Program-made: the position numbers and the translations under genes
In this document: piece by piece, positions 1-38,140 of the stretch
How the letters are laid out: the number at the start of each line of letters is the position of its first letter
Numbering within the stretch: the stretch's first letter is position 1
NCBI GenBank assembly: GCA_035221665.1
Contig: CM069143.1
Location: 41,354,001-41,418,000, forward strand
Reading direction: 5' to 3'
DNA from: Okamejei kenojei
Lineage: Eukaryota
Length of the DNA: 64,000 nt
The notes under the pieces: model-generated
What the model was told of the DNA's origin: nothing
Database searches by the model: none
What the model saw: only the letters and a program-made list of their open reading frames with translations

Positions 1-639
1 GATCCTTAATGCAGTGTGGCTGTGACAATGAGAAAGGTTTAATTTCAGCACAGGCAAGATGGAAAACTCGATAGGGAGGGTAGGGCAGAGTGTGCTGTGG
101 GGTGCAAGGGGAAGAGGAGAAAGCGTGGGGAAAGTGAGATGTACAATGAAATATTAGATCTTGAAGCCATTGTAACATGAGTCTGCCCAAGACAGATACT
201 TCTTCCAATATCAAACTCTATAATTCTGCAGAGTCTCTATCAAAACCATTGAAAATGTAAGCCAAATATCCACAATGAACAAATACATGGCATGATTCAG
301 CTCTACTAATGTGGGACCACAATTTGTACATTCAGGCCACTTAATGATTCCTCAGGCATTACAGGTTTTTGTGCTGTAGTGTGCCTTTGTATTTTACATA
401 ACCAATTTAAGTGTTTGTTCATTCATATAAAGCACGGAGATTAATTCAGAAATGACCATTGTTATTTGGTGCCATAAGATGCTTATTTGTGAAGATGTTG
501 TTTTGTTTCCTGACAAAACTTTTTGTGCTTTACCAGAAAAGAAACAATGGTTGCCCCTGGGACAACTTGAAATACGATCCCCTGTAATGCTCCAAAGTGT
601 TTAAAGAGGGACCTTATTGTATGGTTCTTTGTGTGCATT

Positions 640-930
640 GCTAGAGAAAGACTAGAGGGCATAACTATAAGGTGAAAGGGACAAAGTTTAAAGAAGATGT
701 GGGGGCCAGTTTTTTACACAGAAGGTGGTGGGTGCCTGGAACATCTGTCCGGAGTGGTGGTGGAGACAGATATGATGGTGGCATTTAAAAGGCTTTTAGA
801 TGGATATGGAGGGAATGGAGAGATATGGATTATGTGCAGGTAGATCAGATCAGTTTATCTTGGCATCATGTTCGGCGTGGATATTGTGGGTCTAAGGGCT
901 TGTTTTTCTGCTGTACTTTTCTATGTTCTA
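640..930 (+). mobile_element. CR1 LINE 3' fragment (approximate ends)
   Basis: TRGH-type ORF2 tail and CTATGTTCTA terminus. Confidence 0.75.
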
Positions 931-3164
931 ATTCTCGAGAGGGAAAATGTGTGGCAAAGGCTAAGGATGTAACTAAGCTCCGTGGTAATGCATGACCACA
1001 AATCCTTCCTTCACCTCTGTACTTGGTACCCCATCAATATTTGTCCTTTAGAAGCACACTTAAAGAAGGAGACTTGGTCAACACATTGAAGAGTTGGCCA
1101 AGCCGTGGACATGCATCAATTGAATTCCTCAGCGAGGACAAATGGGGAGGCGCGTACATGTGAACAAGCTTAAAACAAAGGTCACAGATATAATCATGAA
1201 TCAAATATACAATGTTTTAGATAGGGATACGGGATGCTCACATATACTGCAAGTTCAGACTTTCTTTATCTGAGACCCTGTTCAAAAAGACTTGAGTTGC
1301 AGTTCATTTAATGTATAGTTCAGATATCATAGGTCTCTTTGTGCTGTGATTGCATCCTGCCTTTTTGTCAGCCTAATTAAAATGTTTATTCATTTTTATC
1401 AGGCAACTTAATCGAGTATAATGTGAACTTTGCTATTCAGAGTTAAAATGTGCTGACCCATGAATTCTTACAATAATGTAGCTAGGTCGGGTGCTATGCA
1501 CTTTGTACCGCTAAGATTCACCTTCTTAACCATTGGTTAGATTCTGAGAAGTAATTTTGTAGTCAGCAGCTACTAAGGTATTTACAACAGTGAGATAAGG
1601 GCCTTGATGTGGAGTCAGCAACTGGATGTGTACTTAACATTGTTCCAGCTCAATAACACTCAAGGCAGGGAGAGGACTTTTGCCATTCCTAGCCGCTCCA
1701 GTTGCATGTTTAAGCATAACAATCGATATTGTGTAATTGAAAATGCATTGCGGAATATCTGCTTCACACTTAGGGGGTAGATTTCGTCCAGTTTGCGTTA
1801 CGTGGTATTGTGTTGCCTGAGTCACATTGATTTTGATTGTTATAAGGTTGTTTTTCATTGCTCAACCTAAATGTACGACATCCAATTAAAATAAAAACAT
1901 AAATAAATGCCTATGATCAAGGCCACTGCCTCAAGATTAAATCCCTGGGCCCATCCATTGTCTCTAAATTATCAGCCTACTTCTCCAAAAGTTCAGTTTG
2001 GCTTTGTTTAGTTTTGGTTAGCTTTCTCGATGTCTTCTTTTATGACATGCTTTCATATTAAGCTTCTTGTAAAGCACCTTGGTGTATCTTACAAGGAAAC
2101 AGGCCCTCTGGCCCCCTGCATATATACCTACATACCTACCACTGATCACCCGTTTGCATTAGTTTTATGTGCTGGTGGTTGGGAGGGGGGTGGGGGGCAA
2201 GAAAGTTAGAAGAGGGGCAGGACAAAGCTTGGCAAGTCCTGGGTGGATTAAGGTGAGGGGATTTTTAATAGGCAGATGGTAGGACAAAGGCCAGAGATGA
2301 AAAGTCAGAAGGTGTGAGACAAAAGGATTGAAGAAATGCAAATTATGGAGCTATAAGAAGGGATGTAGGTGGAAGGGAGGGGGGGGGGTGGGGGAGGAGA
2401 GAAATAGGTGCAAGTCTAAGTGGAGCACAGGGATAGATGATGGGGTGGAAATGAAGTGGGGGAGGGGGGGGAGCACTGGTAGTTACTTAAAATTGGAGAT
2501 TTCAACGTTCATTAGGTTGTAAGCTACCTAATCAGGATGTTATGTGTTTTTTCTACTGTAAAACAGCCACTGCAGTTCCTTATTTCCATATCTTGAGCAA
2601 GCATTTGATCACCTTTCTCAATGTCTTCTTTGATGACATGCTCTCGGATTAAGCTCTGTAAGATTCTTGTGAAGCACCTTGGAATATTTAGAAACCTAAC
2701 AAACCCATATAATGTTTGTTGCATCAAATTCCTTTTTAATAAAACATGGGATTTTGTTATTTCAGGATCACAATCCACAATTTAATTTTTCCTATGATAT
2801 ATTGCTTATAATTCACTTCCTCCCCAGATTATCTCCTTTCAGCACCAGCTAAATTGTATGTGTGAATTTAGATGGTTAATGACTGTAATGGCTGAATTAC
2901 AGATGGGAGAGAAACAGAACTGCTTGCAGGATTCAACAGTGTCAAACCAAGGAGCCACAGTAAGATAAGAGTCAAAAGGTCAATAGGAGTAAAAAATTCT
3001 CCTGACATGAACATTAATGGCTGCCACATTGGCATGCACAAAAGGACCTTCTCTGGCCAGTATCCAATTGCTTAATAAATTATATGTGATGCTTGGTGTT
3101 TATAAATAGAGGCAACCTATGTTGAATTTCGCCTTACTGACATTCTGCTATTCTCTCAACGATC

Positions 3165-3450
3165 AGGCAGCACGGTGATGTAGCGATAGAATCTAAGAGA
3201 ACCGTGTTTGATCCTGATTACGGGTGCTGTATGTACGGAGTTTGTACATTCCCTCCTTGACCTGCGTGGGTTTTCTATGGTTTCCTTCTACACTCCAAAG
3301 ACATATAGGTTTGTAGGTTAAATGGCTTGGTAAAATTGTAAATTGTCCCTAGTGGGTGTAGTAGGGTGCGAGTGTGTGGGAATCGCTGTTCGGCATGGTC
3401 TCGGTGGGCCGAAGGGCCTGTTTGCACGCTGTATTTCTAAACTAAACTAA
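3165..3450 (+). mobile_element. HE1-like shark SINE (other copies near 9668-9985 -, 18500-18750 +, 38165-38466 -, 52697-52970 +)
   Basis: tRNA-like head, GGAGTTTGTAC...CTCCAAAGAC core, (CTAAA)n tail. Confidence 0.8.
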
Positions 3451-4291
3451 TCGAAACAGTCAGTTCCCAAAATCTTTCTACTGTTTACAAGGCACAAATC
3501 AGAAGTGTATGAAATGCTCACCAATTTTCTGGAGAGGTGCAGATACAATGACACTCAAGAACACCAACACCAATGAGGGCAGATTTTACCTGATGCTCAA
3601 CTTGCATGACCATCCCCATCAGCTATCTCTGGCTGTAACAAGTCAGACCCAGCATATTCACTCAAACCACATTTTGGCAGTGGACAACATTAACTTGTTA
3701 ATTTTGTATCATGTTATACTTAAGTTCAATGGGCAGTACCTTTCTGACCTTGTTTTTCTGCTAGCAGAAGGTTATCGCTGATGTTATTGATGCTAAAGAT
3801 AATTTCATGCAGGCGCTTTTGGTATTTTAATCTCCACATAGAAAACATTTTGCAAATGAATGCCAAAGTTGAAACTGGTGTGGCAAGTGCTAAATAAAGG
3901 AAGAACAAATCTGTAAAATTTCTAAAGCCAGATTATGGAATTTATATGTATATCATCTACAATTTAAAGTAAATGTAGCCTATTTTTCTCATATTTTTAT
4001 ACACACAATTTTTTTTTCTGACCCAGTATAAACAAGTACACACAAAGTCATTGTTTGTGGTTCCTGGAAAGCAGAAAGATCTTTGACAGTGTAGATATAA
4101 TGGATTATACACTCCCATTGAACCTTGGGTAATATGGCTGTCTGGTTAGTGACATGTACAATATATAAAGGAGACCTAGCTAAGAACACAATGGTCTGAA
4201 AGAGAATTTGTATCAACAGCTCTGAAATCAATCCAATCCAGTCCAGATTACTTAAATGTTTCAAATATAACAACACGTGGAGAATTGGTAA

Positions 4292-4601
4292 AGCCCCTGT
4301 CCCACTTTCCCGAGTTACTCACGAATTCTCCCGAGTTTTCGCCTTGATTCAAACTCGGAGAATTTTGGTAATAGCTAGCTATTACTCGGGGTTATTTTTT
4401 TTACTCGTGGACATTTTTCAACATCCCTGAAATAACATCCCGACTTATCTGATGACCCTACAGCTGGCATTGCGAGCCGCTACGGACTCCTATGGACTCG
4501 CTATGGACTCATACGGACTCGCTACGGACATTCTCCGAGTTTGAATCAAGGGGAAAACTCAGGAGAATTTGTGAGTAACTCGGGAAAGTGGGACAAGGGC
4601 T
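4292..4601. mobile_element. PIF/Harbinger-type MITE
   Basis: About 75-bp TIRs AGCCCCTGTCCCACTTTCCCGAG, TAA TSD, internal GCTACGGACTC tandem repeats. Confidence 0.85.
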
Positions 4602-5049
4602 TAACTGTGCTAAATATCGTTGAAGTTAGGAGATGGTTATAACATTTGTCACTCTCACCGATAAAGGCTGTGCAATTTAGTGTTGTACCTCAACAAAGTC
4701 AATCCTGAAGAATGATCAGTTTCTACCGATGGTAGAAATGAGAAGTTCAGGTAGGTACTTTCACAGGAAAATGGGTGGCTAGAGCAGCTGTCTTTTGCTT
4801 GTGGTGTCTGGATTCAATGCCAGCACAAACTGAGACGATCTGTCCTCTCAGCCTATTCTGCTACTGATGGCTACAGTTGGGCGAGCCTTAAATGATAAAT
4901 GTGTTCATATTTGTTGCACTTTGGTACTAACCTGTCAAATTTACAAAGAGCAAAATTGCGCTGCTGCAGTAGGAGATGCACTGCTCAAGTGGAACCTGGT
5001 GCACATGACTGGGACTGAGCAGAAGGCTGTGAAAATGATGATGGGACTT

Positions 5050-5172
5050 TAACCTATGTTTGATTCTGTTCCCTCTCAAAATGATATGTCTAACTAGACC
5101 GTGGTCTTCCTCTGAGAACACAGTCTAGTTAGACACATCATTTTGAGAGGAAACGGAATCAAACATAGGTTA
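5050..5172. mobile_element. Short palindromic MITE
   Basis: About 50-bp inverted arms TAACCTATGTTTGATTC...GAATCAAACATAGGTTA. Confidence 0.7.
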
Positions 5173-6565
5173 TAAAAACAAAGTGAAGAGTACCAATCAT
5201 CACTGGATATGAATTCATAAGTTCTAGGTGCAGAATTAGGCCATTCGGCCCATCACGTCTACTCTGGCTCAATCATGGCTGATATATCTTTCCCTCTCAA
5301 CCCCATTCTCCCTTCTCCCCATAACCCGTACTAATCAATAATCTGTCAATCTCCACCTTAAAAGTATCCATTGACTTGGCCTCCACAGCCGTCAGTGGCA
5401 ATGGATTCGCCACCGTCTGACTAAAGAAATTCCTCCTCATCTCCTTTCTAAAGATATGCCCTGTTATTCTGATGCTATGGCCTCTGGTCCTTACCTGTTC
5501 AAGGAGCTGGGATAAGCATGAGTAACCGAGGATTATTTGAGATCATGGACCTGGGGTTTACACTTTTAATTATTTCTGGTAAATAGCCCGTGTGTGTCCA
5601 TTAATATCAATTAGGTGCCCTGTGGACTCTGCATGTTGAAGCAGAGTTTTGCTTCCTGCGTACTGCAGAGTGCTGACGTGTTAGATTACCATTTAATACT
5701 GCAGTAAACCTTTAAAACTGGTTTCAACTGAGAGTCCCAGCCCAGCTTATTTTGCAATGCAGTCATATCCATGTGGAATAACTGCTACAGAGTTGCAATT
5801 AATAATATTATACCATAAACTAACCTCCTGCTTCTGTTCCTCAGCTGAAATGACAGAATGTTGAAATTGTTTTTGACAATTTAAACCATTGGTATGATAG
5901 GGTGATATTTGTTTTATTTAACTGTACTAATACCACCTTTTAAATATCTTCTTAGTAAGCCTTTATTTCAGTTTTTATCATATATTGCAACACCCACATC
6001 AAGGAACCGACAACTTCTTCAAACAGAAGGTGAAATAATAGAGGGTGCTTTCTATTAGCTAATTGTTATTTCTTTTATAGGAACCAATATACCACAATTA
6101 TTCCATATATTTTATTCCTCTCCCAGCAAGATATTTTCCCTCTCTTTTAAAGGCATTGATACATTAAATCACGTTCTGCCATACTGTACCTCACTACTGT
6201 ACCTCAACATGTCATATTCCTTGATACCTGACCAGATACAAGTTTATAGGGCTATCTTGAAAATTTCAAATGACGTTTGACAGATATGATTCCAGATTCC
6301 CACTATCCTATTCATGTGCGTGCACGCGTGTGTGTGTCTAAATCTTTATACTGCATTTCAAATTAATCTGCTGGATGAAATTCTGTCCAAAACCAGTAAT
6401 TAGCTTGGTCACACCTCCCAGGATTCACCTTTCCTGATAAGTTACTGGGCACCACTTTGTTGCTAGATCTCTGATCATGTAACATTATTCTTCAGAAAAT
6501 TGTATCTGATTTTTAAAAAAAACAGTTTCTCTCAGAGGGAAATTTAGTGATGACCATCTCCAGGC

Positions 6566-6713
6566 TCTTTTCTTCGTCTTCTTCTTTCGTGTGGTGTGCA
6601 CAGCCTAAAATTGTAGGACAACTTGTTCTATTTGATCTTTCGTTTGTGCACGTCGAGTTGATTGCATTAGTCGAAACAGGGCGGACCACGTAAAGGTTGC
6701 AATCTTCCACCCC
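6566..6713 (-). mobile_element. Short SINE or LINE 3' end with (GAA)n tail
   Basis: GGGGTGGAAGATTGCAACC start and GAA-repeat tail on the minus strand. Confidence 0.55.
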
Positions 6714-8548
6714 AAGGCTGGTTTCTGTTACTCTGGAAATTCAACCAGATATTTCAACCTTGCTTACGATTAATTCATGCCACATGCAATGCCCCTATGG
6801 AGCACTGCAGGGAAGATGTTTTCAAGTTGTCACAGGAGCACTCACTGTGGACATTTGTGGGAATGTTATGGTCTGTAGAATGGCACTGTGATGCAGCCAA
6901 TAGAGATAGTGTATCATTGCTGTAGGACTTTCAGCCCTGATCTCTTGTGATGTCTGTGTAGAGTTTCAATATTCTACCTATGTCAATATGGTTTACCCCA
7001 AGGGCTATTGCACCATAAATTATCTTAGTGGATGGTGGAATCATGAGGGAGTCGATGGGACTGTTGTGAGAATAGGTCCCTGGGTAAATTATTCTGGTAA
7101 TGGGTTGCATAATGATCCAGCATAGACAAGGATTGGGTGGCCTCTTTCTACATTATATGGAAACATAGAAATTCATGTTACAAAGCTGGATTTGCTTCAT
7201 CCAACGCCGCTCCCCTCTTTCCACAGCAACAGCACAGCTCCAACACCTACACCCCAATTCCCCCAACTCCTGGGACTTGGGGTTGAGATGAACGACTAGA
7301 TGTTCTCTCCCCCACCCAGCCTCATATCTGATCCCAACTTGCTTGCAGACCAGTCCCACCGCCTACCCCAGTCCTATTTGCTGACCTTTTCCCCAATCTG
7401 CCTCAATCTGGCTTAGATTTCTCAATGGGCATTAGTGTGAAAACAGCAGGTATATTGGGAAGTAATGTAAGTTCTCCTCCATGCCTGGTAAAGAGACATC
7501 ATTGAACATCTTGCAAGTCATGAGGTTGTAAATCTACATATTTCCAAGTGTCAGAAATGTGTTAATCCAAAGCAGAAGTAAAATGCGTCATCTTAACATC
7601 ATCATAGATGGCCATTGAAAGTCATAGCTGTGAGGAAACCATATACTGGCACATGCAGGAAACTATCACACAAGTGACTATTTTAACCATTGCACGAGCG
7701 TTGCTTTCTTTGTAACTGAATCAAAGCAACACACTGGATTCACATTTAGCAAGTGAGGAAAACTTCAACCCTCATTTTAAAGATCAGTATTTTCTGAGTC
7801 TGTGCATTAGTATGTTATAGGTCTTTTCTTTTGTAATTTATAATTGTAATTAATTTATTAGCCAAGTATGTAAAAACATACAAGGAATTTAATTTGCTTT
7901 ATGGTCATATCAAAAAAACACAACTCCATAAAAATTAACATGAACATCCACTACAGCACACTGTGATGGAAGGCAATAACGTATTATTTTCTTTTTTCCC
8001 CACGGTCGGGGCAGTCAAACCATCTGCAGTCAGAGCGATCAAGACTCCCGCAGCCGGAGATCGAAGCTCCCGCGATCGGGGCAACTGTCAAAGTTCCTGC
8101 GGTTGGAGCTCCCGAAGGCGACCCCCAGCAAAGGGACCGCCAGCTCCACGATGTTAGGCCGTAGTGCAGATGGAGATACGATACGGAAAAAGTCGCATCT
8201 CCGTTGAGGAAAGAGATTTTAAAAGTTTCCCCACCCCACCCTCCACATAATACAAAACTAAAGATACACTAAAACATACATTTAACAACAGACTAAAAAC
8301 AACAAAAGAAGAAAAAGACGAGACAGACTAGTTGGCTGCAGCAATACGGTCAGGTTCCATGGAGTTTATTGCTGCGTGGTGGGTGCCCCATTGTAGGTGC
8401 TGCTCAACTGGCCAATACCAAAGTATATGTCAGAGCTAGAGGAGGTGCAGCTGCTGAACTGTCAGTGTGGATGTGATCAGCGCACGTACGATAACACAGC
8501 AAAGTAATGTTTCTTTAATGAATTATGTCTTTTTTTGGTTCTTTTCAG

Positions 8549-8623
8549 TTATTTGAGAAGATCGACAATACAATGGCATCAAACATCAACCACTTTCTGA
8601 GTAATGGAGTGCACAATAAAGAG
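8549..8623 (+). CDS. MPP1: Putative upstream MPP1 exon (LFEKIDNTMASNINHFLSNGVHNKE), CASK L27-linker-like; may carry the start codon at 8573
   Basis: Polypyrimidine tract and cag acceptor; 75 nt open in phase 0; ACAATGG Kozak context; ends GAG|gt in frame with the next exon; resembles CASK [26 protein letters not shown]; donor gttttt is weak. Confidence 0.6.
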
Positions 8624-11219
8624 GTTTTTACATTTCACTGAAGACTTTATCACAAATCATGTGGTTTACCTGACAATGCCTGGTGTTCTGTCTGCTCAGC
8701 ACCATTAGTTTGTATGTTCACAAGCTCTTTGAAATGAGTTGATTCCAGACAACAGTAGGTGGGCCATGGAAATTGAATTTGGCACCCATATGTTAATGAG
8801 AGGCAATGTATCCAAGGGTAGGGGCTAACTTTAATCTAACCCGTCAGCAGGAAGAAAGATGAGATCAGTTCAACTACACATTTTACCCTTTTCCCATTCT
8901 ATTTTGATGGATTGTAGAATTGAGTAGCATTTAAAATGTGTGAGTAATACAACTTCCAAATTGTCCAATGAAGCAAGTTATGTTTAAATATCTGCCCTGG
9001 CTTCCACTCCAGGTTCAGTGTTTGTTGCTGAACCACAATTTAAGGTGTTTCTTCACGGAAGCCTGAAGCATAGTTGTTTCACACCCAGAGTCTGGATGGT
9101 TTGAGGGTGCCGTTACTGCCTTCCTAATGCAGGCTATCAGACTGTCATGTAAACCACAGGCAGCAAACTAAATCCAAATCAAAAATATTCTTACACTCTA
9201 ATGGAACTTGATTCTGATCAGCTTACAATATTACTGTTACTTGGACACAAAACTTGGAGAAGAAATCTGACCTCACTAGACAGTGATGGCTTGATAATCA
9301 GACTCTTAGGAAGCCCAGGCAAAACAAGCTCTTTTCTCTGACAAAATAAACTCACTGAAACATACAGGCTTTCGACTAAATATTTGATCTAATTATTTCC
9401 ACTCGCAAGTAAAGGTAGAATGTTTCCCAATTGTTCTTAAGTACCCACTGGCTTATTGGGAAAATGTACAGCTAAATATGTAATGCAAATGTAAGACTGG
9501 GCTGGTTTCAGTTCAGACAAAAGCTGGGGCATTTCAGCTGAAAGAGTAATTGGATACTTCAGTTGGCTTCAGTCTTGCTGGGGTGGTGTTGGGAGTAATT
9601 AAATGGTTTGGAGGCAGAGGGTGGATAATGGTGTAGTCAGCTAATGAATGAAGGCTGCAACACATTTTTAGTTTAGAGATACAAAATGAAAACAGGCCCT
9701 TTGGCCAACCGAATCCATGGCAACCATTGATGACCTGTTCACACCCGTTCTATGTCATGCCACTTACTCATCCACTCATTTACACACCAGGGGCAATTTA
9801 CAGAGGGCAATTAACCTGCAAAACCTTCTTTGGGATGTGGGGGGAAGCCGGATTACCTGGAGAAAACCCACATGGTCACAGGGAGAACGTGCAAACTCCA
9901 CATAGACAGCACAGAAGGTCAGGATCGAACCCGGGTCTCTGGTGCTGTGAGGCAGCAGCTCTTCCCAGCTGAGTCACTGTGCCAGCCTTGTACACTAATG
10001 GAGTTTGGGATTACCTCCAGCCCGACACGTCTGCCTAAGTAAATCCCAGTAAGTATCAAGAAAAAGAATAGAAAAAAAGAGGGTTTTGTAAAAATCAATA
10101 ATTTGTGGAAAGAAGCTAAAATCTCTTCATTCAATTTAAACCTGAAAACTCATTGTGGTCATTTAATAAATGTTGAAGTGCCCGTGATCAAACTTTACTT
10201 CGGTACTGGGGCTTCTCTCATTCAGAGATAGTCAGAGTAACGAGCCACCCTGTCAAGTTAACATTAACAATAATCTGCATGAAGCTCTGATTTTGATGGC
10301 CGCACTATTTGTTGACTGACTGTTGGCCTGCGGACTTTGGGAAGTTGTGACAGTGCTCTGGTTGTACCTCTGGAGTGCCTTGGCAGGTCATTCGCTGAAT
10401 CTTTATTATGTGCTGATTTGAAAAAGAAAGTCTAACAAAAATCATGTGAATTTTTCACTCTTCGAGTAAAGTTCGTGAATATCTACATTGCACCAATGTA
10501 AAGTGTAATACTTCCTGAAGATGCAGTGATGCCTGGCATGTGAAGCTACAGAAAAAGTTTGACTCTAATGGGCAGCACTGCTACATGCTATCTGCAGTGT
10601 TTTATACATCTCGCTGAATATAATACTAGAATATTTTCACATCCTGATATTAAAACCAAAGGCTTCACATGTTATTGATATTCCATTGTCAGTGGAAGTA
10701 CCCAAACATGTAAAATAAATGTGTTAATGCTGCTGTAATGCAGAATACCGATGAATGTCACATAAATACACACAGTTTTTCTACTGATATCCTCGACATT
10801 TATTTCTGAAGCTTGATGTTCCTTGAAGTCGTTATTTGATGTAATTTGAGTTAAGCAGACAGTGGCTTCAAAATTGTACCCGAATTTGAGATCAAGGTTA
10901 CCTCATAGGGAAGATCTACAAGGAAGGGGAAGAAGATCTTGGCTCTGCTTGCTCATTTTATCAGAGTGATTTCCAGATCTAGGAGTGATTCCCCAGAATC
11001 ACTGCACCTGCCCAACGTATGCTGGTCTCAGTCCATGTATAAAATTAAATCAGATTGCATCCTTTTAATCAAGGATACCTGAAAAATGTCCTCAGGATTA
11101 TATCAATTGCCAAACCATCCTCGTTTGAGCGAGGCTCAAGTATCCAGTATGTAGTAAAGGGCAAGTAGTTTGTGAAAAAAAAAAGTGTTAAAGAAGGAAC
11201 TGCAGATGCTGGAGAATCG

Positions 11220-11409
11220 AGGGTACACAAAAGGCTGGAGAAACTCAGCGGATGCAGCAGCATCTAAGCACAAAAGGCTGGATAAGAAGAAGCATCTAAG
11301 CACAAAAGGCTGGGTCTGAAGAAGGGTCTCGACCCGAAACGTCGCCTATCTCCTTCGCTCCTTAGATGCTGCTGCACCCGCTGAGTTTCTCCAGCCTTTT
11401 GTGTACCCT
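11220..11409. repeat. Penelope-derived palindromic element containing a hammerhead motif
   Basis: 49-bp inverted arms (1 mismatch) flanking CTGAAGA-AGGGTCTCGACCC-GAAACGTC. Confidence 0.75.
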
Positions 11410-11976
11410 GTGAAGAAAAAAAATCAGTTTGAAGTTGAAAATTTGTTTATAATTCATTTAGATTCTACAGACAATATTTTTCCCATTACAGTACTTTTAA
11501 GATCAATAAGTGCAGTTAAGAAGGAATGGGTTTTCACAACACATACATAATGAGGACAGACGCACAGAATAAAGTTGATGAACAATGTAATTTCAGTGAT
11601 GCATGGTAAATATGAAGCATTGCACATATTACAAATTGATCAGAATTAGCTGCATCTCATCTGCTAATAAACTCACCATCCTTTAGCATGTGTCTGCCAA
11701 CATTCACATTTACAATAACTGAATACAACGATGCAGTCAAGTTACAACTTGAACAAAAACAAAACTGCTCCAGGCACATTTGGAGAGAGGAGTGTACCCT
11801 AGAGAAAAAAGTAACCTGTTGTGTTTCAGTGGATTTTGTCCAGGAAAAATAGGTAATACATTTTAGTCTGGTTGACTTCATCATTTTCCTATTTGGGAGA
11901 AAACAAGACACATTTGCCACGTTAGAGCCTAGTTTTATTGTTATTTTTGTCTAACTTATTTATGTCTTATTCCTAG

Positions 11977-12135
11977 AGTTACATGCTGACCTGTGCTGGT
12001 GCTGCCCAGGAAGTCTACAGTAATGGCAGTACCAACTCTTCCCCTTACATGAATGGTAACAGTAAAGAACACGAGGTGCATAACATGAAGAAAATCCAAA
12101 TGATTACCTTCCAGAAAAGTACAAATGAACCCATG
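11977..12135 (+). CDS. MPP1: MPP1 exon (SYMLT...FQKSTNEPM), start of PDZ
   Basis: tag acceptor, ATG|gtatgt donor; matches MPP1/CASK 'FEKVTEEPM/FQKNTDEPM'. Confidence 0.9.
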
Positions 12136-14112
12136 GTATGTCAACTTTCTGGGAAGAAAACTATTTGTACTCCTCTTGCAAAAAAAAGCTTCTAAATCTC
12201 ACCCAGCATTTTATACAAACGGAAATAAACACTCATTGTGCTTTCAGATTTTGTCTAAGTTTATTGTGGATGCTCCAAACTCCTTGCAATTTGCTTCAGA
12301 ACCAATCTGTTCAACCCCCAACATCTATTCCTGGTTTAGCAGCAGATCCCAACTCCTTCCTGCTTCACCTTACAATGCGTTTTGACCTGTTTGACCAAGG
12401 GCTGAGCTTCCAATTCACATCCTATCTGCTACTGTGATTATCTATCTATCTTCAGTGCCAAAGCATAATTTTCTACAGCTTTTACCTCCTGCTAAAAATA
12501 ACAACCATTCCTTCTTACACTTCCAGTTCCAACTTACACTTATCTGCTGCGTAGCTGGTTCAACTTTTGCCTTCCTCTGAAAATATTTACTTGCAGATCA
12601 TGATCGTGGGACTGTGCAAGGTGCTTTACATTAATTAATTAATTCTCGCTTTTAACTCTAACACATTCAGAACAAGACATTCATATTCTCTTTCACTATC
12701 CAACTAGGTAACTTCCATTGATTACTGCTACCCAGCTCATTATTTTCTAAATCCTGCCTCTTCTCATTAGTCCTTCCACAGAGTCTGCCCTCTTAACCTT
12801 TGTCGTTTCCTTTAGATTGCAATTTAGCCATTCCATCTGTTTTTTCAGCTCTAGTGCAATTCTTTCCACTCTGCAATTTACACAATCTTATGCCGATATT
12901 CTGGAATTTCCTCCTTAAATTCCTATAATTTCAAAATGTTCCTAAAATATGCTTCTCTGGCATAGCTTTTAACCCCTTCCCTAATCATTGCAACCGTGGT
13001 TCATCTTCACTCAAATGTGCTATGTTAGGGATTTGATGTAAATAGAATTGTTAAGAAGTTCAACAAAATAATTGAGATACAAGGAACTGTGGATGCACAA
13101 ATCCGGAGCAAAGCACAATGTGTTGGAGTAACTCTGTGAGTTAGGCAGCATCTGTGGAGAAAATGGTGGATGATGTTTCAGTTTGGGACCCTTCTTCAGG
13201 CTCAAAATAATTGTGATGGTTTTGCCCGGGGTTGGTGAAAGCATTAGTAGGTATACACAAGCTTAATATTAGTGTACATATTAGGCAAATTGTGACAATA
13301 TGCAACATGATTTGTCATCAGCATTACCAAAATAGTTCTTCAATCAGAGCCTTCATCAATTCTGCACAACTGATAATCATCAGCAACAAACTCACCCAGA
13401 GGATTAATACTGAAAGAGGAAGGGAGGAGACGATTTAGTCTCTTTCCTAGATGTCGCTAAATAATTCACTTGTTAACAACAGTAATTCTTGTAACCCAGT
13501 CACACAACTCTCCCTCTCTCTGTAACTATTCATTTACTTGGCCACTGAGCAGAAAGAAAATGCATCAAAAAAAATCCAGTACAAATTTAGATATGGAAAC
13601 ATGCCAAATAGCTCATTATCATCAGGCTGGCTGCAACTCAGTTGGGTACATTTGGTGCATTTGTATCTCTACCATCCTAATAATGGTAAATAATCCATTG
13701 TCAATAATGGCAGCAAGTAGCTTCACATGCAAATAATGGCAGCATGTAGGTTCAAACAAGCAGCCACTTCCCATCCCTTCCAGTTAGCAGCATCCAGCTG
13801 CCCCTACCAATGCTCCCCATCACCTTGGCAGCGGGACCGAAGTGGCACGTTCTGCAATCAATTGGTGATGTGGCTTTCATGGCTGACCGGCTGTAAGTGC
13901 ATCACAAGTTGTGAGATTCATGCCCGACCTCTGGGCAGTGCCCAGTGTGTTGGTGTGGTGAAACTTGTGAATGTAAAATAGGTAGAGTGTGGTGAACTGC
14001 GCTGTGTTTGAGCTAGAACTAAGGTGCATTTGATAGAAAATGGAATTGGAAGTTATATTCTACATTTGAGATTTTGCTGATTCATACATGTGTAATCTCT
14101 TTGCATCTACAG

Positions 14113-14191
14113 GGAATTACTCTGAAACTGAATGACCAGGGACGCTGTGTCATTGGAAGGATACTACATGGAGGGATGATTCATAGACAAG
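14113..14191 (+). CDS. MPP1: MPP1 exon, PDZ ([27 protein letters not shown])
   Basis: 79 nt, AG/GT boundaries, PDZ motif. Confidence 0.95.
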
Positions 14192-15620
14192 GTGTGAAAT
14201 CCTTAAAGATTCTGCCATTCTCTCATTCTGGTTATATTCATGCCATGCACATATGTGCGTGTGTGCGTGCACGTTTAAATTACTTGGATGTAAACATAGA
14301 CAGTTTAGTAAGTTTGCAGATGGCACCACGATTGCTGGAGTCGCGGACTGTGAGGAAGTCTGTCAAAGTTTGCAGTGGGATATAGATCAGCTACCGAAAT
14401 GTGTGGAGAAATGCAGATGGAGTTTAATCCAAGCAAGTGCAAGGTGTTGCACTTTGGGAGGTAAAATGTGATTATACAATTAATGGCTTGACCCTAAACA
14501 CCAAGTCCAGAGAATGCGGGGAAACCTGAGAGAAGTATATACGATTATGAGAGGCATAGATGGGGACAGTCAGAATCTTTTTCCCAGGATGGAAAACTAA
14601 AATACTGGAGGGCATAACTTTATGGTGAGAGGGGCAAAGTTTAGAGATGTGTGGGGCTTTTTTTTTTAACTGCAGGGCATGATAGTTGATGCAGATACAT
14701 TAGTAGCATTTAAGAGAATTTTGGATAGGCATATGGATACGCAGGGAATGGAGGGATATGGGTTATGTGGAGGCAGATAACTGATGACCTTGGCATCATG
14801 TTCAGCACAGGCATTGTGGGCTGAATGGGTTGTTCTTGTTATGTACTCTTTTATGTCCTATATCTTGAGACACGATTAAAACTTAAATCTTTCAATGTTT
14901 ATTTCCTTATGTCTGCCCCTTTTCTGCCTCTTGTGTGCTAAGTCTGTGAGCGTGCAGAAGATACACATGTGAACTACAACAGGAGCAGGCTATTGAACAA
15001 GATCATGGCTGTTCTGATGATAATATCAACTCCACATTCCCATTCACATCTCACCCACTTTGCTTATCAAATCTCATTACTTGTGACCTAAAATTATTGT
15101 AATCCTCCGCTTCAGCTGCCCTTTGAGGAAGAGAGATCCAAAGACACGCAATTCTCTGAGAGATAAAAGTTTCACTTCATATTTGTCTTAAATGGGTGAT
15201 CTTTATTGTTGTGTAGTAACCCCTGGTTCTAGATTGTCTCACAACAGAAATCTGCCTCTCTGCATCCAACCTGTCAAGACCCCTATGTGACTTGTATGTT
15301 TGAGTGTAGTCACCTCACACTTCTCAGCTTCAGCAGATCCATTTTCTGGGTGTTCTAGCTGCGTTGTGGATCATCATATGGGAGATATCTGATATCCACA
15401 TGCATGTGAGAAACAAAAGCCCTAGTTGTTTTTCCCTAAACCAAGGAAAGTAAAATACCAATTGTTACATCCTACAGCTAAATGCCTCTGAAGTTATGTT
15501 TTTAAGTAATATTATACCATGTTAAGGTCTTTGTGGTCTCTATAGTTCACTTTACTGACTGATCAAAGATTAATTCTACCAGTGAAACTATATCAATAAC
15601 CAACTCTCTGCAAGGTTTAT

Positions 15621-16088
15621 GGGATGTCAGGACTTTCATATGAAGAAAGATTGGATAGACTCGGCTTGTACTCGCTAGAATTTAGAAGATTGAGGGGGGA
15701 TCTTATAGAAACTTACAAAATTCTTAAGGGGTTGGACAGGCTAGTTGCAGGAAGATTGTTCCAGATGTTGGGGAAGTCCAGAACAAGGGGTCACAGTTTA
15801 AGGATAAGGGGGAAATCTTTTAGGACCGAGATGAGAAAAACATTTTTCACACAGAGAGTGGTGAATGTCTGGAATTCTCTGCCACAGAAGGTAGTTGAGG
15901 CCAGTTCATTGGCTATATTTAAGAGGGAGTTAGATGTGGCCCTTGGGGCTAAAGGGATCAGGAGGTATGGCGAGAAGGCAGGTAAGGGATACTAAGTTGG
16001 ATGATCAGCCATGATCATATTGAATGGCGGTGCAGGCTCGAAGGGCCGAATGGTCTACTCCTGCACCTATTTTCTATGTTTCTATGTT
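15621..16088 (+). mobile_element. CR1 LINE 3' end
   Basis: LSYEERLDRLGLYSLEFRRLRGDLIETYK...TRGHS; CTATGTTT tail. Confidence 0.92.
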
Positions 16089-17041: not shown

Positions 17042-17534
17042 TTTCTATAAGATCCCCCCTCAATCTTCTAAATTCTAGCGAGTACAAGCCGAGTCTATCC
17101 AGTCTTTCTTCATATGAAAGTCCTGACATCCCATAAACCTTGCAGAGAGTTGGTTATTGATATAGTTTCGCTGGTAGAATTAATCTTTGAGTGACTTTGC
17201 AAGTACATTCAGTCAGTAAAGTGAACTATAGAGACCACAAAGACCTTAACATGGTATAATATTACTTAAAAACATAACTTCAGAGGCGTTTAGCTGTAGG
17301 ATGTAACAATTGATATTTTACTTTCCTTGGTTTAGGGAAAAACAACTAGGGCTTTTGTTTCTCACATGCATGTGGATATCAGATATCTCCCATATGATGA
17401 TCCACAACGCAGCTAGAACACCCAGAAAATGGATCTGCTGAAGCTGAGAAGTGTGAGGTGACTACACTCAAACATACAAGTCACATAGGGGTCTTGACAG
17501 GTTGGATGCAGAGAGGCAGATTTCTGTTGTGAGA
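17042..17534 (-). repeat. Inverted duplicate of 15237-15711
   Basis: Near-identical reverse complement over about 475 bp. Confidence 0.95.
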
Positions 17535-17929
17535 GAATGGAAGAGGCCCAGGACAGAAAGTATGGGAATGGGAAGGGGAGTTAAAAGAGATCCAGCGGGC
17601 CTTGGCATACTGAGCTGGTGTTCAGCGAAATGGTCGCTGAGTCTACACTTGGTCTTGCCGATGTAAAGGACGCCCCAGTGAAGTGGGGTTTCAGTACTGC
17701 TCCCATCACACTAGTAGGAAGATGCAGATCTTGTTATATCAAAGGCCACATTAAATCCTGCATCTACTGAAGTGAGGGCTGGAGCCCTCTTCACACCTCT
17801 GTGAAAATTAGAATCTGTTTTGTCTCCTGCAGTGACAGGAGAGTTCAAGTGTCGATGGTTTACTCGACTATCAAATCTGTTTCCATTGCCTGGTGAAGTT
17901 GCAAACATGTTTTGCTTCTGGATTTACAG

Positions 17930-18015
17930 GCACACTCCATGTCGGTGATGAAATTCTAGAAATAAATGGCAAAAGTGCTGCAAATCAAACAGTGGAACAA
18001 CTGCAGTTGCTGCTG
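17930..18015 (+). CDS. MPP1: MPP1 exon, PDZ ([28 protein letters not shown])
   Basis: 86 nt, cag/gtatgt, phase-compatible with neighbours. Confidence 0.95.
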
Positions 18016-18873: not shown

Positions 18874-18942
18874 AAGGAAATGATGGGAACTGTCACTTTA
18901 CAGGTTCAGTCCAACTACCATTGCAACCCTCTGTCCTTTGAG
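18874..18942 (+). CDS. MPP1: MPP1 exon, end of PDZ (KEMMGTVTLQVQSNYHCNPLSFE)
   Basis: 69 nt, cag/gtgagt, phase 0/0. Confidence 0.92.
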
Positions 18943-19834: not shown

Positions 19835-19867
19835 GAAATGTATTCAAATCAGCCACCACTAAGAAAG
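19835..19867 (+). CDS. MPP1: Putative 33-nt cassette micro-exon (EMYSNQPPLRK) between PDZ and SH3
   Basis: cttttgtttcacag acceptor, AAG|gtgaat donor, frame-preserving; resembles CASK alternative exon DLPSTTQPKGRQ. Confidence 0.6.
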
Positions 19868-20016: not shown

Positions 20017-23000
20017 ATTATTATTTTTTTTTTGTTAAATATTTTTATTGGACGTAAGTACATATTAAAAGAGTAAACTTGTCACATACATTGTAATATT
20101 AACAATTATGTCTTATTTGTATTTCTATATATTTTTTATTGCAGATAGGAAAAAATAGAGAAAAATAAAGTAAAAATAGAAAATCAAAAAAAAAAAATGA
20201 GTGGAGTATTAAACAGGTTATCCATCATTGGAGATATATGATTTGTTATATATCCATGATTTGTTATATATGATTCTTCACCCATTCCTTTATTCAGGCT
20301 TCAGTCAGGTTCTCGCACCAAGCCATTTTGACCCTTTAAATATTCAATAAATGGAGACCATATCCCTCGGAAAAGATCCAACTTGTCCAGTAGGACAAGC
20401 CTTAATCTTTCCAGATGAAGTGTCTCCGACATTCCTGTAATCCACATTTTGGTTGTGGGGGATGTAGGACCTTTCCAGAATTTCAATATTAATTTTTTCC
20501 CAATTATTAAACTGTAATCAATGAAAATTCTTTGATTCATTGTTATTAGTTGATCTGTTTCTAATATTCCCAATATTATTAATTTTGAGTCAGGGATCAG
20601 ATTCATATTAACAACATTCGAAATTATCTTAAATATTTCTGTCCAACATTTAGTAATTTTTATACAATTTGTAAATGAATGCGTTAAGTTAGCTTCTAAG
20701 TGCTGACATTTATCACATATGGCAGATACATTTGAAGAAATACTATGTAATTTGGATTTTGAATAATGTAATCTAGGTAATATTTTAAATTGCATAAGAG
20801 AGTGTCTAGCATTTAATGAACAATGGTGTATATGTTGTAAACTTTCATCCCATACTTCTAGTCTGATTAATTGACCTAATTCATTTTCCCATGATTGTCT
20901 ATATATTTCTGTCATTGGGACATCATTTTCCAATAAAATATATATGATATCAATTTTTCTGTGTTTGGATGTTTATTTAGACATTCATCTAAAATTTCTG
21001 TCTTTCTATTTCTGATTTATTGTGTGTTTGCTATTACATAGTCTCTAATTTGTAAATATTTAAAGTAATCTTTTGAATGTAATCCATAAATTTGTTGTAA
21101 TTCTTGAAATGACATGGAGTTTTCCCTATAGAGATCGCCCATCTTATTAATTCCATAGTTTTTCCATTGTAAAAAACCTTTGTCCATGATTGAAGGTTTA
21201 AATGTAACATTATTTACAATGGTTAGGGCTAGTGGTATACATTTCAATTTTAATGTTTTCTTTATTTGTTTCCAGATACGTATCCCACTTTCTATTATAG
21301 GATTTTCACTATAGATTTTCTTACCTAGTTTAATATTAACGAATAAAATCGAGCTAATTTCAAAAGGCGAACAATCTTCTTTTTCCATTTTTAACCAGAT
21401 TGGTTGTTTATCTGTCTCTACTAACCAAAAATTCATATTTTTAATATTAACTGCCCAGTAATAAAACATAAAGTTTGGCAGTGCTAGACCTCCATTTATT
21501 TTTGATTTACATAAATGTTTTTTTATTTATTCTTTGGCTCTTATAATCCCAGATAAAGTTGGTGACTATAGAATCAACCTTCTTAAAGAAATTTTTAGGA
21601 AGATATATCAGAATCAATTGAAAGAGATATAGTAATTGCAGGAGAAAAATCATTTTTATTGCATTAATTCTACCTAGCATTGAAATAGGTAATGTTTTCC
21701 AACATAAAATATTCTTATTTAATTTATTCAATAAAAGTGGAAAATTGGATTTAAATAAAGAATCAAATCTTTTTGTTACATAAATTCCAAGATATTTGAT
21801 TTTTTCGTTTGCTATCTTAAAAGGAAATTGTTGTAGTATATGTAAGTTATTTACCATTATTGACATAAGTTCACTTTTATTCCAATTAATACAAAATAAT
21901 CCAAATTCAGTTATTAATTTTAGTAAATTTGGAATACTAATTTCCGGCTTTGTAATATAAAGTAATATATCATCCGCATATAAGGAGATTTTATTTTCAG
22001 TATCTCTGGTGTCATACCCATATATTTCAGGATGTAATCTCACACGTTGAGCTAATGGTTCTATTGCAAGTGCAAACAATAGCGGGGATAAAGGACAACC
22101 TTGTCTGCAGCCTCGGAATAAATTAAATTTAGTTGATAGCATTTGATTTGTTAGTATTTTGGCTGTTGGATTAGTGTATAATAATTTAACCCAAGTAATA
22201 AACTTCTCTCCCAACTTAAAATAATCCATAACCAAAAACAAGTAAGACCATTCCACCTGGTCAAAGGCTTTCTCCGCATCTAACGATATAATTACTAGGT
22301 CTTTATTAATACCTCTTTTCGAATATATAATATTGAATAATCGTCAGATTATATGAGGAATATCGTTTTGGTATAAATCCTGTTTGATCCGGGTGAATTA
22401 ATTTATTAATAACTGTGCTTAGTCTTTGTGCTAATATTTTGGTTAGTATCTTTTGATCAGTATTTAAAAGAGCTATAGCTCTATATGATCCTGGGTCATC
22501 CTGATCTTTGTCTATTTTAGGTATAAGTGTTATAATAGATTCATTTAACATTTCTGGTAGTTTCTGCTGGGTATAAATGAATTCATAGAGTATCTTCAAA
22601 CGTGGTGCAATCAGATCATAAAATGTTTTATAAAATTCCGAACCAATACCATCTGGTCCCGGTGTTTTACCATTTTTTAATGATCTGATAGATTCTTCGA
22701 TTTCTTTTACTGATATTTCAGCATTTAGTGATTCTCTATTTTGTGAATCCAACCTATTCAGAGTATTTTTTTTTTAAATGCTTCTATTCCTATCTTGTTT
22801 TCTGTCGTTTTAGCTGAATATAAATTTTTATAATATTGCAAAAATCTCTCATTAATATCTTTGGGTTGTACTAATGATTAGCCATAGTATGATTTAATCC
22901 TATGGATCATTTTTTCTCCCTCCATTTTCCGTATTTGACGAGCAAATAATTTTTGAGGTTTATCTCCAAATTCAAATCGTAATTGTTTAGTGTATTGATA

Positions 23001-26000
23001 GAGTTTTACAACTTGATCTTAGTATATTTTATTTAATTTATATTTCAGTGCAGCATTTTGTTTTGCTTTGTTATGGATGGATTAGCAGCATTCTCTGTGT
23101 CTAATTGTTTAATCTCCTTTTCCAATTCCTGTTGTTCCCTCCGATTCTCTTTATTATAAAATGCTTGAGAAGAAATCATAATTCCACGGGCATATGCTTT
23201 AAAAGTTTCCCATAATAGGGAAGAAGATATTTCCGGTTTATCATTTATTTCAAAGAAAATCTTGATCTGTTCTATAATATATTCCTGAGTTATTTTGTCT
23301 TTTAAAATTTGTGGGTTAAATCTCCATTGTCCGTTTTTTTCCGTTTTACCATTTATTTTAATCATAAATGTTAAAGGTGCGTGATCTGAGATTGTAATAT
23401 TATGATATTTTGAATTATAAGTAAGTGAGATAAGTTTAGCGTCAACCAAAAAATAATCACTTCTTGAATAGGTTTTATGTACAGGTGAATAAAATGAATA
23501 TTCTCGTCCAGTTGGAAATTTCTACTCTCCAAACATCTTTAATATTACTAGTATCCGTATATGCATTTAATAAGTCACTGGAATGGGATTTGGTTTTCCT
23601 TTGTCTTGTGGATCTATCTAAATAAGAATCTAATGTACAATTTAAAACTCCTCCAATTATTAAGTTATGTTGTGCTATTTCTGGGATGTTATTAAATATT
23701 TTCTTAAAGAACAGTGGACTATCAAAGTTTGGTCCATATACATTGACAAAAATCATTTTTTGTGCATTTAATTCTCCTATTACAATAATGTATCTACTGT
23801 CACTGTCAGTTATAGTTGATGTATGTTTAAATAAAGTGCCTTTACGAAATAATATTGCTACGCCTCTGGATTTGTGTGTAAAAGAAGAATGTTACGTTTT
23901 ATCTATCCATTTAGATTTCAGCCTATGCTCGAAATCTTTTTTTAAATGTGTTTCTTGAATAAAAATCACATCAGCTTTAATTGCTTTTAAATGTGCTAGT
24001 ACTTTACCTCTCTTAATTGGTTCATTAATACCTTTAACGTTCCAGCTACAAAACGTTATTCCTTCATTCCCCTTATTCATTTTTAAATCTTGCATCTTTT
24101 GTCTCTGGGGGGTCTATAATAGAGCCAATGGTTCAGTTCGACAGAGCCGACCTTACACCAGAACTCCGAATAGACGAATTTTAAGACCCTTGAATGTCTC
24201 TCACGTGTATATCTCCTTTGATCCAACTTGTAACTCCATTCAAACTGAAAATAATAATGATAGATTATAATAGAGAAGAAAAGAGGATAGGTTAAGAAAT
24301 TAGTATTGTGCACAAAGAAGGAAAAAACTACATCTAGTATTAGTGTAGTTAGTGCTAGCCATACTAGCATGGCTAACCATCTACCGACTTCCGTAGTTGA
24401 TGTTACCAACTTAACCAGCTCCTTGGTTTCTTGGAATTTTTATTCCATAGCAGTATTTTACCAGGGATATTAGATTTTAAAATATTCGGGTTCCAATAGT
24501 CGGAAATGTGAGGATACATATATTTAAAACTTGTTTGAAATATAATAAAAAAACGAAAAGAAAGGAAAAAATAAAATAAAAATAAAAATAAAAATTACTA
24601 ATAAAAAAGAAAAAAGGTTTCCAAGGAGGGCAAATTAAATCAAACTCTATATTTGACTCTAATCATTCCATTATAAGTAGGTATTAGTCATTAGTGATAA
24701 TTATTAACTCTGATTAGTAAAGATACCACACTATAATTTTAGTATTTATTAGTTTTATTAGTTATTTATATTAGTAGTGCAGTTATACTAATTATTAGTA
24801 TCCATGGGAGAGTTTCTGATCCACATCTTTCTCCAGCTTCCTTAGTCACGACTTTAATTCCATCCAGTCATGCAAAGTCAGTTTATTCAATGATGAAGTT
24901 CAGTTTTAAAAGTATTATTCAAGCATCCTCTCGAACCTTAATCTTCTGGGCAAAGTCCAATGCTTCCACAGGGTTGGTGAAAAAGTGTTCCTTCTGATTG
25001 TAAGTGACTCTTAGGGTAGCTGGATACCTCAGACCATATTTCAAATTCTTCACTTCCCTCAAGATTCTTTTGATCTCATTAAACGTTTTTCGTTTCCTGG
25101 AGACCTCTGCTGGATAGTCTCGATAAATACTGATCCTGTATCCTTCAAATGCAAGATTTCTGTTTCTTGCAATTTTTTGCATTATCTCCTCCAGGACATG
25201 GTCGTACTGGAATTTTATTATCATTTGTCTTGGGGGAGCGCTTTGTCTTGTCTGGCGTCTCATCACTCTGTGTGCTCGGGCAAGTAAAGGCTTTTGATCC
25301 TGAGATAAAACTTTTTGCAGTGAATTCTCGGGCATCTTCATCCGTCTCTTTCCCTTCTGGAATACCCGCAATTCTTAGGTTCTGTCTTCTCTGGCGACCT
25401 TCCAATTCAGTACATTTCTCGGTTATTTTGCCCAGTAATTCAGTTAGACGTTGGTTTTCTGTGATAAGCTTTGCTGTAGTCTGAGCACTTGTTTCGGCTA
25501 GTTCTTCAAGGCCCTTTATGGCTGCCGTCTGTTGAGTCAGTGCCAGGTCCACAGGATTCAGCCTTTCTTCAAGATCAGTTTTCACTTTTCTGATTTTAAC
25601 ATTCGTCTCATTTGTCAAACTTGCAGTTTGTTCAGTCAATATTTCTGCAATTTATTTCTTCAGTTCATCCGATGTATTCTTAGCCGTGGTATTCATTTCA
25701 AGCTTTAACTCCTTCATTTCCTCCTTGATTTTTTTTATTTCTTCCCCAAAATTCATCTTCTTCAATTCTTCATTCATTTTTGCCAGTTCATTCTTTAGTT
25801 CCACCTTTATTTCCTCCTTTAAACCAGCAATTTCACTTGCAATAAAAGTTTTAAGTTCTTCACCTTCCGATTTTTTTCATCGGTTTTTTCGACACATCTT
25901 CTTGGGATAGCGTCCTGCCTGAGCCCGAGGCTTCAGTCGGGCCTTCCACCGTTTTCTGCCTGGTAACCCGACTTTTTGGTTTATCCGCGGGTGGGCTGCG

Positions 26001-27654: not shown

Positions 27655-27848
27655 ATGTACATGCGAGCTCAGTTTGATTATGACCCAAAGAAGGATGATC
27701 TGATCCCCTGCAAGGAAGCTGGATTAAGTTTTGAGACTGGTGACATTATCAAGATAATCAGTAAGGATGATCCCAACTGGTGGCAAGGCACACTGGAAAA
27801 TACAGGCAAAACCACTGGACTGATTCCCTCTCCTGAGCTGCAGGAATG
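27655..27848 (+). CDS. MPP1: MPP1 exon, SH3 ([24 protein letters not shown]...PSPELQEW)
   Basis: SH3 motif, AG/GT boundaries, 194 nt. Confidence 0.96.
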
Positions 27849-30341: not shown

Positions 30342-30451
30342 GCGTGTGGCTAATAGGAATACAACAAATCAGGATGTGACATCAGGATGTGGTGTATTTG
30401 GGAAGAAGAAAAAGCAGTGCAAAGACAAGTATCTGGCCAAGCACAGCGCAA
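30342..30451 (+). CDS. MPP1: MPP1 exon, HOOK/4.1-binding region (FGKKKKQCKDKYLAKHSA)
   Basis: Basic KKKK motif, 110 nt, phases 2/1. Confidence 0.95.
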
Positions 30452-30969: not shown

Positions 30970-32581
30970 CAGTGGCTTGCAAAAGTTTTCATACCCCTTG
31001 AACTTTTCCACATTTTGTTACGTTACAACCACAAACGTAAATGTATTTTATTGGGATTTTATGTGATAGACCAGCACAAAGTGGCGCATAATTGTGAAGT
31101 GGAAGGAAAATGATACATGGTTTTCAAATTTTATTACAAATAAAAAACTGAAAAGTGTGGCGTGCAAAAGTATTCAGCCCCCTTTACTCTGATACCCCTA
31201 AATAAAATGCAGTGCAACCAATTGCCTTCAGAAGTCACCTAATTAGTAAATAGAGTTCACTTGTGTGTAATCTAATCTCAGTATAAATACAGCTGTTCTG
31301 TGAAGGCCTCAGAGGTTTGTTAGAGAACATTAGTGAACAAGCAGCATCATGAAGCCCAAGGAACACACCAGACAGGTCAGGGATAAAGTTGTGGGGAAGT
31401 TTAAAGCAGGATTAGGTTATAAAAAAAAATCCCAAGCTTTGAACATTTCACGGAGCACTGTTCAATCCATCATCCGAAAATGGAAAGAGTATGGCACAAC
31501 TGCAAACCTACCAAGACATGGCCGTCCACCTAAACTGACAGGCCGGGCAAGGAGAGCATTGATCAGAGAAGCAGCCAAGAGGCCCATGGTAACTCTGGAG
31601 GAGCTGCAGAGATCCACAGCTCAGGTGGGAGAATCTGTCCACAGGACAACTATTAGTCATGCACTCCTTTATGGAAGAGTGGCAAGATGGCCATTGAAAG
31701 CCATTGTTGAAACAAAGCCATAAGAAGTCCCGTTTGCAGTTTGCCACAAGCTATGTGGGGGACACAGCAAACATGTGGAGCAAGGTGCTCTGGTCTGATG
31801 AAACCAAAATTGAAGTTTTTGGCCTAAATCCAAAACGTTATGTGTGGCGGAAAACTAACACTGCACATCGCCCTGAACATACCATCCCCACTGTGAAACA
31901 TGGTGGTGGCAGCATCATGCTGTGGGGATGTTTTTCTTCAGCAGGGATAGGGAAGCTGGTCAGAGTTGATGGGAAGATGGATGGAGCCAAATAAAGGGCA
32001 ATCTTGGAAGAAAACTTGTTAGAGTCTGCAAAAGACTTGAGACGGGGGCGGAGGTTCACCTTCCAGCAGGACAACGACCCTAAACATACAGCCAGAGATA
32101 CAATGGAATGGTTTAGATCAAAGCATATTCATGTGTTAGAATGGCCCAGTCAAAGTCCAGACCTAAATCCAATTGAGAATCTCTGGCAAGACTTGAAAAT
32201 TGCTGTTCGCAGACGCTCTCCATCCAATCTGACTGAGCTTGAGCTATTTTGCAAAGAAGAATGGGCAAGAATTTCAGTCTCTAGATGTGCAAAGCTGGTA
32301 GAGACATACCCCAAAAGACTTGCAGCTGTAATTGCAGCGAAAGGTGGTTCTACAAAGTATTGACTCAGGGGGGCTGAATACTTTTGCACGCTAAACTTTT
32401 CAGTTTTTTAGTTGTAATAGAATTTGGAAACCATGTATCATTTTCCTTCCACTTCACAATTATGCGTCACTTTGTGTTGGTCTATCACATAAAATCCCAA
32501 TAAAATACATTTACGTTTGTGGTTGTAACGTGACAAAATGTGGAAAAGCTCAAGGAGTATGAAAACGTTTGCAAGCCACTG
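30970..32581 (+). mobile_element. Tc1-family DNA transposon, DD34E transposase pseudogene
   Basis: TA TSD, about 210-bp TIRs beginning CAGTGGCTTGCAAA; [14 protein letters not shown] and SPDLNPIE motifs; frameshift near 31670-31700 and stop at 31992. Confidence 0.96.
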
Positions 32582-34921: not shown

Positions 34922-35002
34922 TTTTTGATCGCCTGGATCTAGTCTCATATGAGGAAGTGGTGCAACTCCCTGCATTCAACAGAAAGACTCTGGTGCTTCT
35001 TG
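34922..35002 (+). CDS. MPP1: MPP1 exon ([26 protein letters not shown])
   Basis: 81 nt, cag/gtgagc. Confidence 0.95.
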
Positions 35003-35333: not shown

Positions 35334-35414
35334 GGGCCAATGGTGTCGGGCGAAGTCACATCAAAAATGCTCTGATTACTAAACACTCTGACAAGTTTGC
35401 ATATCCAATTCCAC
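35334..35414 (+). CDS. MPP1: MPP1 exon, GUK (GANGVGRSHIKNALITKHSDKFAYPIP)
   Basis: 81 nt; GRSHIKNAL is MPP1-type. Confidence 0.95.
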
Positions 35415-37934: not shown

Positions 37935-38140
37935 ACACTTCAAGGTCACCAAAGAACAATGAAGAAGATGGAAAGAGCTACTACTTTATTTCCAATGATG
38001 ACATGGTGAAGAACATTACCTCAAATGAATTCCTGGAATATGGAAGCTTCCAAGGGGCCATGTTTGGAACAAAGCTGGAGACAATCCGTAAGATCAACGA
38101 AGGACAGGGGAAAATTGCAGTGGTGGACATTGAGCCCCAG
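37935..38140 (+). CDS. MPP1: MPP1 exon, GUK (HTSRSPK...[17 protein letters not shown]...DIEPQ)
   Basis: GUK signature, 206 nt, tag/gtatgt. Confidence 0.95.

Follow-up and report, generated by a model that had tools for sequence, protein, structure and literature searches.

MPP1, or p55, is a 55 kDa erythrocyte membrane protein that serves as a red-cell scaffold. From phylogenetic trees it has been argued that MPP1 is a CASK derivative that lost the kinase and L27 domains (PMC2859873, accessible text), and MPP1 alone is described as being without L27 domains in the accessible parts of two other papers (PMC4610023 and PMC7662862). A short MPP1-like product, CASK-alpha, is made from a second CASK promoter in Drosophila, according to the available portion of PMC4075472; it resembles the shorter form of MPP1 treated below in joining a short unique start to a PDZ-SH3-GK core, with neither kinase nor L27 domains, and differs from it in coming from the CASK gene, as one of its isoforms, rather than from a separate paralogue. 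As far as the accessible text of PMC8208546 goes, the only alternative exons of CASK in human fetal brain are 11, 19, 20 and 23L. Closest to the locus described here are X1-type MPP1/p55 gene models of elasmobranchs (XP_048400840.1, XP_067853050.1, XP_051877084.1 and XP_078403272.1), which have the same gene, exon order, insert and junction; these models carry no remark on the origin of the insert, and the examined skate models, from other species, are without it.

The window analysed here, a 64-kb stretch of Okamejei kenojei DNA, contains most of an MPP1 gene. When the exon at 11977–12135 (+) was used as a query, it retrieved skate MPP1, which aligns to eleven exons on the plus strand, between 11977 and 41423, with 90–100% identity where blocks match one exon. 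The first of these is MPP1 exon 2; it begins SYMLTCAGAAQEVY and corresponds to CASK exon 15; the preliminary description had pointed out its colinearity with CASK. It is followed on the same strand by PDZ exons at 14113–14191 and 17930–18015, a PDZ-end exon at 18874–18942, an SH3 exon at 27655–27848, a HOOK-region exon at 30342–30451, an exon leading into the GK domain at 34922–35002, GK exons at 35334–35414, 37935–38140 and 39612–39695, and the last coding exon with the stop codon at 41247–41423. Pfam recognised PDZ, SH3 and GK domains in these exons (at 17930–18015, 27655–27848, 35334–35414 and 37935–38140), and together with the exon identities this upholds the earlier naming of the gene as MPP1. 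With refined ends, exon 2 to the last exon total 441 codons, which equals skate MPP1 minus its 43-aa first exon, and skate MPP1 falls in the MPP1 clade with 100/100 support in a tree built without the window's own protein. DKC1 exons span about 51300–57000 on the minus strand, convergent with MPP1, and an open reading frame at 56689–56898 (−) holds one of them. We take MPP1 to adjoin DKC1 in the human genome.

The 43-aa first exon that skates, sharks and chimaera share (hereafter the MTLK exon) had no match anywhere in the 64 kb, and therefore the first exon of this MPP1 most likely sits upstream of position 1. An in-frame M-T-L-K at about 3548 was rejected as a first exon, being unlike the 43-aa elasmobranch sequence and attributable to chance. 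Several other features of the gene were observed. The start of exon 2 (11975–11978) has a tandem acceptor, TAGAG, and the exon opens with a Ser codon, where the other elasmobranch proteins examined have Gly. Intron 1 contains short inverted-repeat elements, likely small transposons, at 4288–4605, 5050–5172 and 11220–11409. In intron 3, two inverted arms of about 480 nt (15233–15711 and 17042–17538) are 99% complementary and lie 1330 nt apart, which points to a misassembly or to a recent inverted duplication. Broken open reading frames lie in introns and downstream at 31337–31720 (+), 42466–43221 (+), 20304–25374 (−) and 36680–37198 (+), which we take to resemble Tc1-type transposases and pieces of LINE reverse transcriptase or endonuclease.

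Positions 8549–8623 (+), in intron 1, form a 75-nt segment that is open throughout, has phase 0-0 and encodes the 25 residues LFEKIDNTMASNINHFLSNGVHNKE. The segment is probably an in-frame exon that is conserved in sharks and rays, optional in gene models and likely derived from CASK exon 13, and that, when included, adds 25 residues to a predicted-disordered N-terminus. A polypyrimidine tract and AG acceptor precede it at 8529–8548; by a simple weight matrix, with frequencies taken from general knowledge, the AG at 8547–8548 after its long pyrimidine tract is in the 99.7th percentile of AG sites in the window. By the same matrix the GT donor at 8624–8629 (GAG/gttttt) is weak, at the 58th percentile of the window's GT sites and the lowest of the 12 MPP1 donors scored. 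The open phase-0 segment and its good acceptor had been described correctly, and the weak donor was absent from that account. Were the donor left unspliced, the frame would end in a stop codon five codons past 8623. The phase of the segment means that both inclusion and skipping keep the frame, and the combination of a weak donor with a strong acceptor makes skipping the likely default.

A 25-residue insert with identical ends is found in RefSeq MPP1 models of Stegostoma, Cetorhinus, Heptranchias, Pristis and Hemiscyllium, and the window peptide shares 17–21 of 25 residues with these five inserts; 11 of the 25 positions are invariant across the six species. Skipping isoforms are recorded for four of the five insert-bearing species, and the inclusion isoforms are computed RefSeq models, that is, predictions. 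Because the ends and frame recur in five species alongside skipping isoforms, 8549–8623 is, by comparison of gene models, a conserved cassette exon that is optional in shark and ray MPP1; its conservation in sharks and rays, part of a check proposed at the outset, is thus borne out. Altogether, the insert occurs in 5 of the 33 cartilaginous-fish MPP1 proteins examined (the shark protein cluster being represented by the 15 of its 37 members among the matches listed) and in none of 117 bony-vertebrate proteins, a set drawn mostly from the best 120 of 708 matches to a query without the cassette. Within the protein, the cassette changes fastest (77% vs 85–98%), in line with mild constraint.

The cassette was found in none of 12 skate-cluster proteins, seven of them from Logan assemblies, and this absence, together with the very weak donor, is what would be expected if a CASK-derived exon that works in sharks and sawfish had already fallen silent in O. 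kenojei, its frame still open through recent ancestry. We consider such a silent relic rather improbable, since the frame, both splice sites and 17–21 of 25 residues are intact. In addition, in a relative's DNA contig none of the 23 listed differences (38 in that piece), which lie between 8333 and 8931, falls within 8497–8640; the tentative probability of so clean a stretch is about 0.035 for the exon and 0.005 when the splice sites are counted, on the basis of the 23 of 38 differences listed.

In run X7, an RNA-type contig of 2072 letters (record 26, depth about 102) shows exon 2 spliced to exon 3, free of differences. It carries 261 letters ahead of exon 2 that did not align to 7400–14400, and hence represents the form without the cassette; these letters presumably are the MTLK exon. 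No RNA record was listed for 8480–8700. None of four aligned runs showed a joint involving the cassette, the tables of joints and loose ends being crowded with repeat-derived contigs; the X3 run gave only short, unspliced, low-depth pieces. The cassette may be included in O. kenojei mRNA.

The preliminary description had also raised the possibility that the exon is reused as the start exon of MPP1, with translation from the internal ATG at 8573–8575. The Kozak context of this ATG is indeed good (A at −3, G at +4), and one Hemiscyllium model (P0145) places the cassette near the N-terminus, behind a different 3-residue start. This start-exon reading nevertheless appears extremely improbable and was rejected, because the upstream acceptor is strong, the codons upstream of the internal Met are conserved, Heptranchias has Val in place of the Met, not one of the 33 proteins starts at it, and cartilaginous fish throughout have the MTLK exon. 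The insert sits between the MTLK exon and exon 2 in the Stegostoma, Cetorhinus, Heptranchias and Pristis models, the Hemiscyllium model itself begins upstream of the acceptor, and the sole CpG-rich stretch nearby is a high-copy repeat. The suggestion had been made from a view of the gene that ended, at the window edge, short of its first exon. Other short 5' starts feed the cassette or exon 2 in several shark and ray models (P0144, P0145 and P0146), which hints at additional promoters in intron 1; within the window, no counterpart of these alternative starts was located.

For the comparison with CASK, we used a segment of 26 residues (374–399 of P0389), within which Pfam places the end of the first L27 domain (L27.1) and the start of the second (L27.2). 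The CASK peptide quoted in the preliminary description is letter-for-letter identical to this database sequence. The ends of the segment were deduced from models that skip it (P0243) or skip the next segment (P0303 and P0304) and from exon counts, not from CASK DNA, and its number, exon 13, was obtained by counting between exons 11 and 19 as they appear in the accessible text of PMC8208546. By this counterpart, the cassette would run from the end of L27.1 through the linker into the start of L27.2. The cassette matches exon 13 in position, in both phases (0-0) and in both end residues, and its length is nearly equal (25 vs 26 codons). It differs in being one codon shorter, in lacking the proline-rich middle, in having no exon 14 behind it and in forming no L27 domain. 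It is also skippable in MPP1, whereas exon 13 lies outside the alternative set given for human fetal brain CASK in the available part of PMC8208546; models in which CASK itself skips exon 13 or the next exon also exist.

Aligned end to end with CASK exon 13, the peptides of the six species reach z 4.6–7.5; against exons 12 and 14 no z exceeds 2.1. In this anchored alignment, the score of the window peptide was matched by none of 5000 shuffles and none of 1672 natural 25-mers, and the peptide ranked first of the 1134 plus-strand open segments flanked by AG and GT/GC (score 23, with the next at 4). As a control, one minus-strand segment among 887 reached a score of 21, so that such a score arises by chance about once in a thousand. 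A profile-profile comparison of the six-sequence cassette with the CASK L27 pair landed on the first residue of exon 13 with an E-value of 0.0045 and was equalled by 0 of 150 column shuffles, and eight further CASK-like equivalents of exon 13 all scored above shuffles (z 2.3–4.6). The Heptranchias cassette is identical to CASK at 10 of 26 positions, and its undisputed exon 2 at 25 of 63. Less restricted searches gave no significant likeness: the unanchored comparison of the window peptide with whole CASK had p 0.65, a CASK exon-13 HMM run on six-frame segments of the window left the cassette outside the top four, a cassette HMM run against CASK gave E 0.1, and a broad MAGUK profile ranked the correct place only fourth. 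Significant profile likeness to CASK, one of the checks named in the preliminary description, was found in the profile-profile comparison and not in the HMM searches in either direction. PDB sequence searches with the cassette and with exon 2 found no match, a Pfam search gave none either, and an ESM Atlas search returned nothing usable.

These null results and the control segment with a score of 21 would fit an exon that arose anew in intron 1 of elasmobranch MPP1, its likeness to CASK being due to chance and selective choosing. A late origin would likewise account for the absence of the cassette from five of five chimaera models and from all 117 bony-vertebrate proteins as well as two losses would. 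We regard such exonisation as unlikely, because CASK played no part in confirming the exon, which is the sole conserved insert at the place where colinearity predicts exon 13 or 14; in that setting a chance level of about one in a thousand is persuasive. The agreement with exon 13 in position, both phases, both ends and length to within one codon, and the eight further equivalents, also speak against it. The cassette therefore very probably descends from CASK exon 13, as judged from sequence comparison, and the earlier proposal of descent from the CASK L27-linker exon can be graded as likely.

The intervening CASK exon, exon 14, had been said to have no counterpart here, and this holds: the best global score among 34 candidate segments in 8624–11976 was −7, and no exon-12-like or exon-14-like segment was found in 1–11976. 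In a tree of 34 sequences from the PDZ domain to the end, MPP1 is sister to vertebrate CASK (100/99) amid CASK-like outgroups, which agrees with PMC2859873 and PMC1978500 as far as their accessible text shows. Descent from CASK exon 13 would be explained as follows. CASK would have been duplicated early in vertebrates, and one copy, having lost the kinase exons and exon 14 and gained a start at the MTLK exon, would have become MPP1, with exon 13 remaining in the new intron 1. Phase 0-0 would have allowed its inclusion or skipping without a frame break, and the strong acceptor and weak donor would have made skipping the probable default. Elasmobranchs may then have retained the cassette under mild selection, and bony vertebrates likely lost it. 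When included, it would most likely serve as a putative regulated spacer, or as a short contact segment, lying between the conserved helix of the MTLK exon and the PDZ domain.

Pfam found no L27 domain (PF02828) in the cassette or in four inclusion isoforms, and the CASK controls matched. Half of each domain is missing, as the cassette represents no more than the end of L27.1, the linker and the opening turn of L27.2, so no L27 domain can form from it and none is retained. MPP1 of sharks, rays, skates and chimaera likewise has the MTLK first exon and no kinase or L27 domain. To view this gene as an intermediate in the truncation of a CASK-like ancestor is an overstatement; it looks like an ordinary MPP1, with neither kinase nor L27 domains, that can carry one optional relic exon. 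Residues 1–105 of the AlphaFold prediction have pLDDT below 50, and there the model is evidence neither for nor against a fold. An amphipathic helix was rejected as a conserved trait of the cassette, because the test gave p 0.018 for the window peptide and 0.08–0.50 in the five relatives.

A further-reaching reading treats the whole N-terminus of MPP1 as a worn-down L27 pair, with the MTLK exon corresponding to exon 12, the cassette to exon 13 and exon 2 to exon 15; inclusion would then rebuild the last helix of L27.1 and yield a splice-controlled remnant of SAP97/DLG1-type L27 binding in sharks and rays, lost in bony vertebrates. We find this very doubtful. Against CASK exon 12, the MTLK exon gave global z scores of −0.2 to 2.3 over 11 sequences and hhalign E-values of 0.03–0.17. 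One broad-profile test was matched by 0 of 300 shuffles, and the CASK-only test gave p of about 0.2. Non-L27 regions outscored L27 in a control scan, and the conserved helix of the exon fits the L27 helix register no better than controls. In the same scan, the first residues of the MTLK exon had their highest score against the beginning of the PDZ domain, probably by chance.

A second cassette of 33 nt, also of phase 0-0, lies at 19835–19867 (+) and is present in the X1 models of the skates Leucoraja and Rhinoraja. It occupies the place of the CASK alternative exons 19/20 and is weakly similar to exon 20 (z 2.6, p about 0.012 before correction for four comparisons); it is possibly a second CASK relic.

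The insert was already present in public gene models, and the origin of MPP1 from CASK is in print. A search of the open-access literature, with subscription papers outside its scope, found no link between the MPP1 insert and a CASK exon. The finding leaves the view of MPP1 function in mammals unchanged and has modest evolutionary weight; what it likely records is the paring down of MPP1, and neither a new gene start nor a new system. If true, a CASK exon still present in MPP1 of sharks and rays would attest physically to the origin of MPP1 from CASK. It would constrain that origin, in that the new first exon would have been acquired upstream of the exon-13 position and exon 14 lost separately, and the L27 region would have been lost exon by exon rather than in one cut. 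An exon that once coded for part of a domain would have survived in one lineage as a skippable cassette, which yields a testable pair of isoforms.
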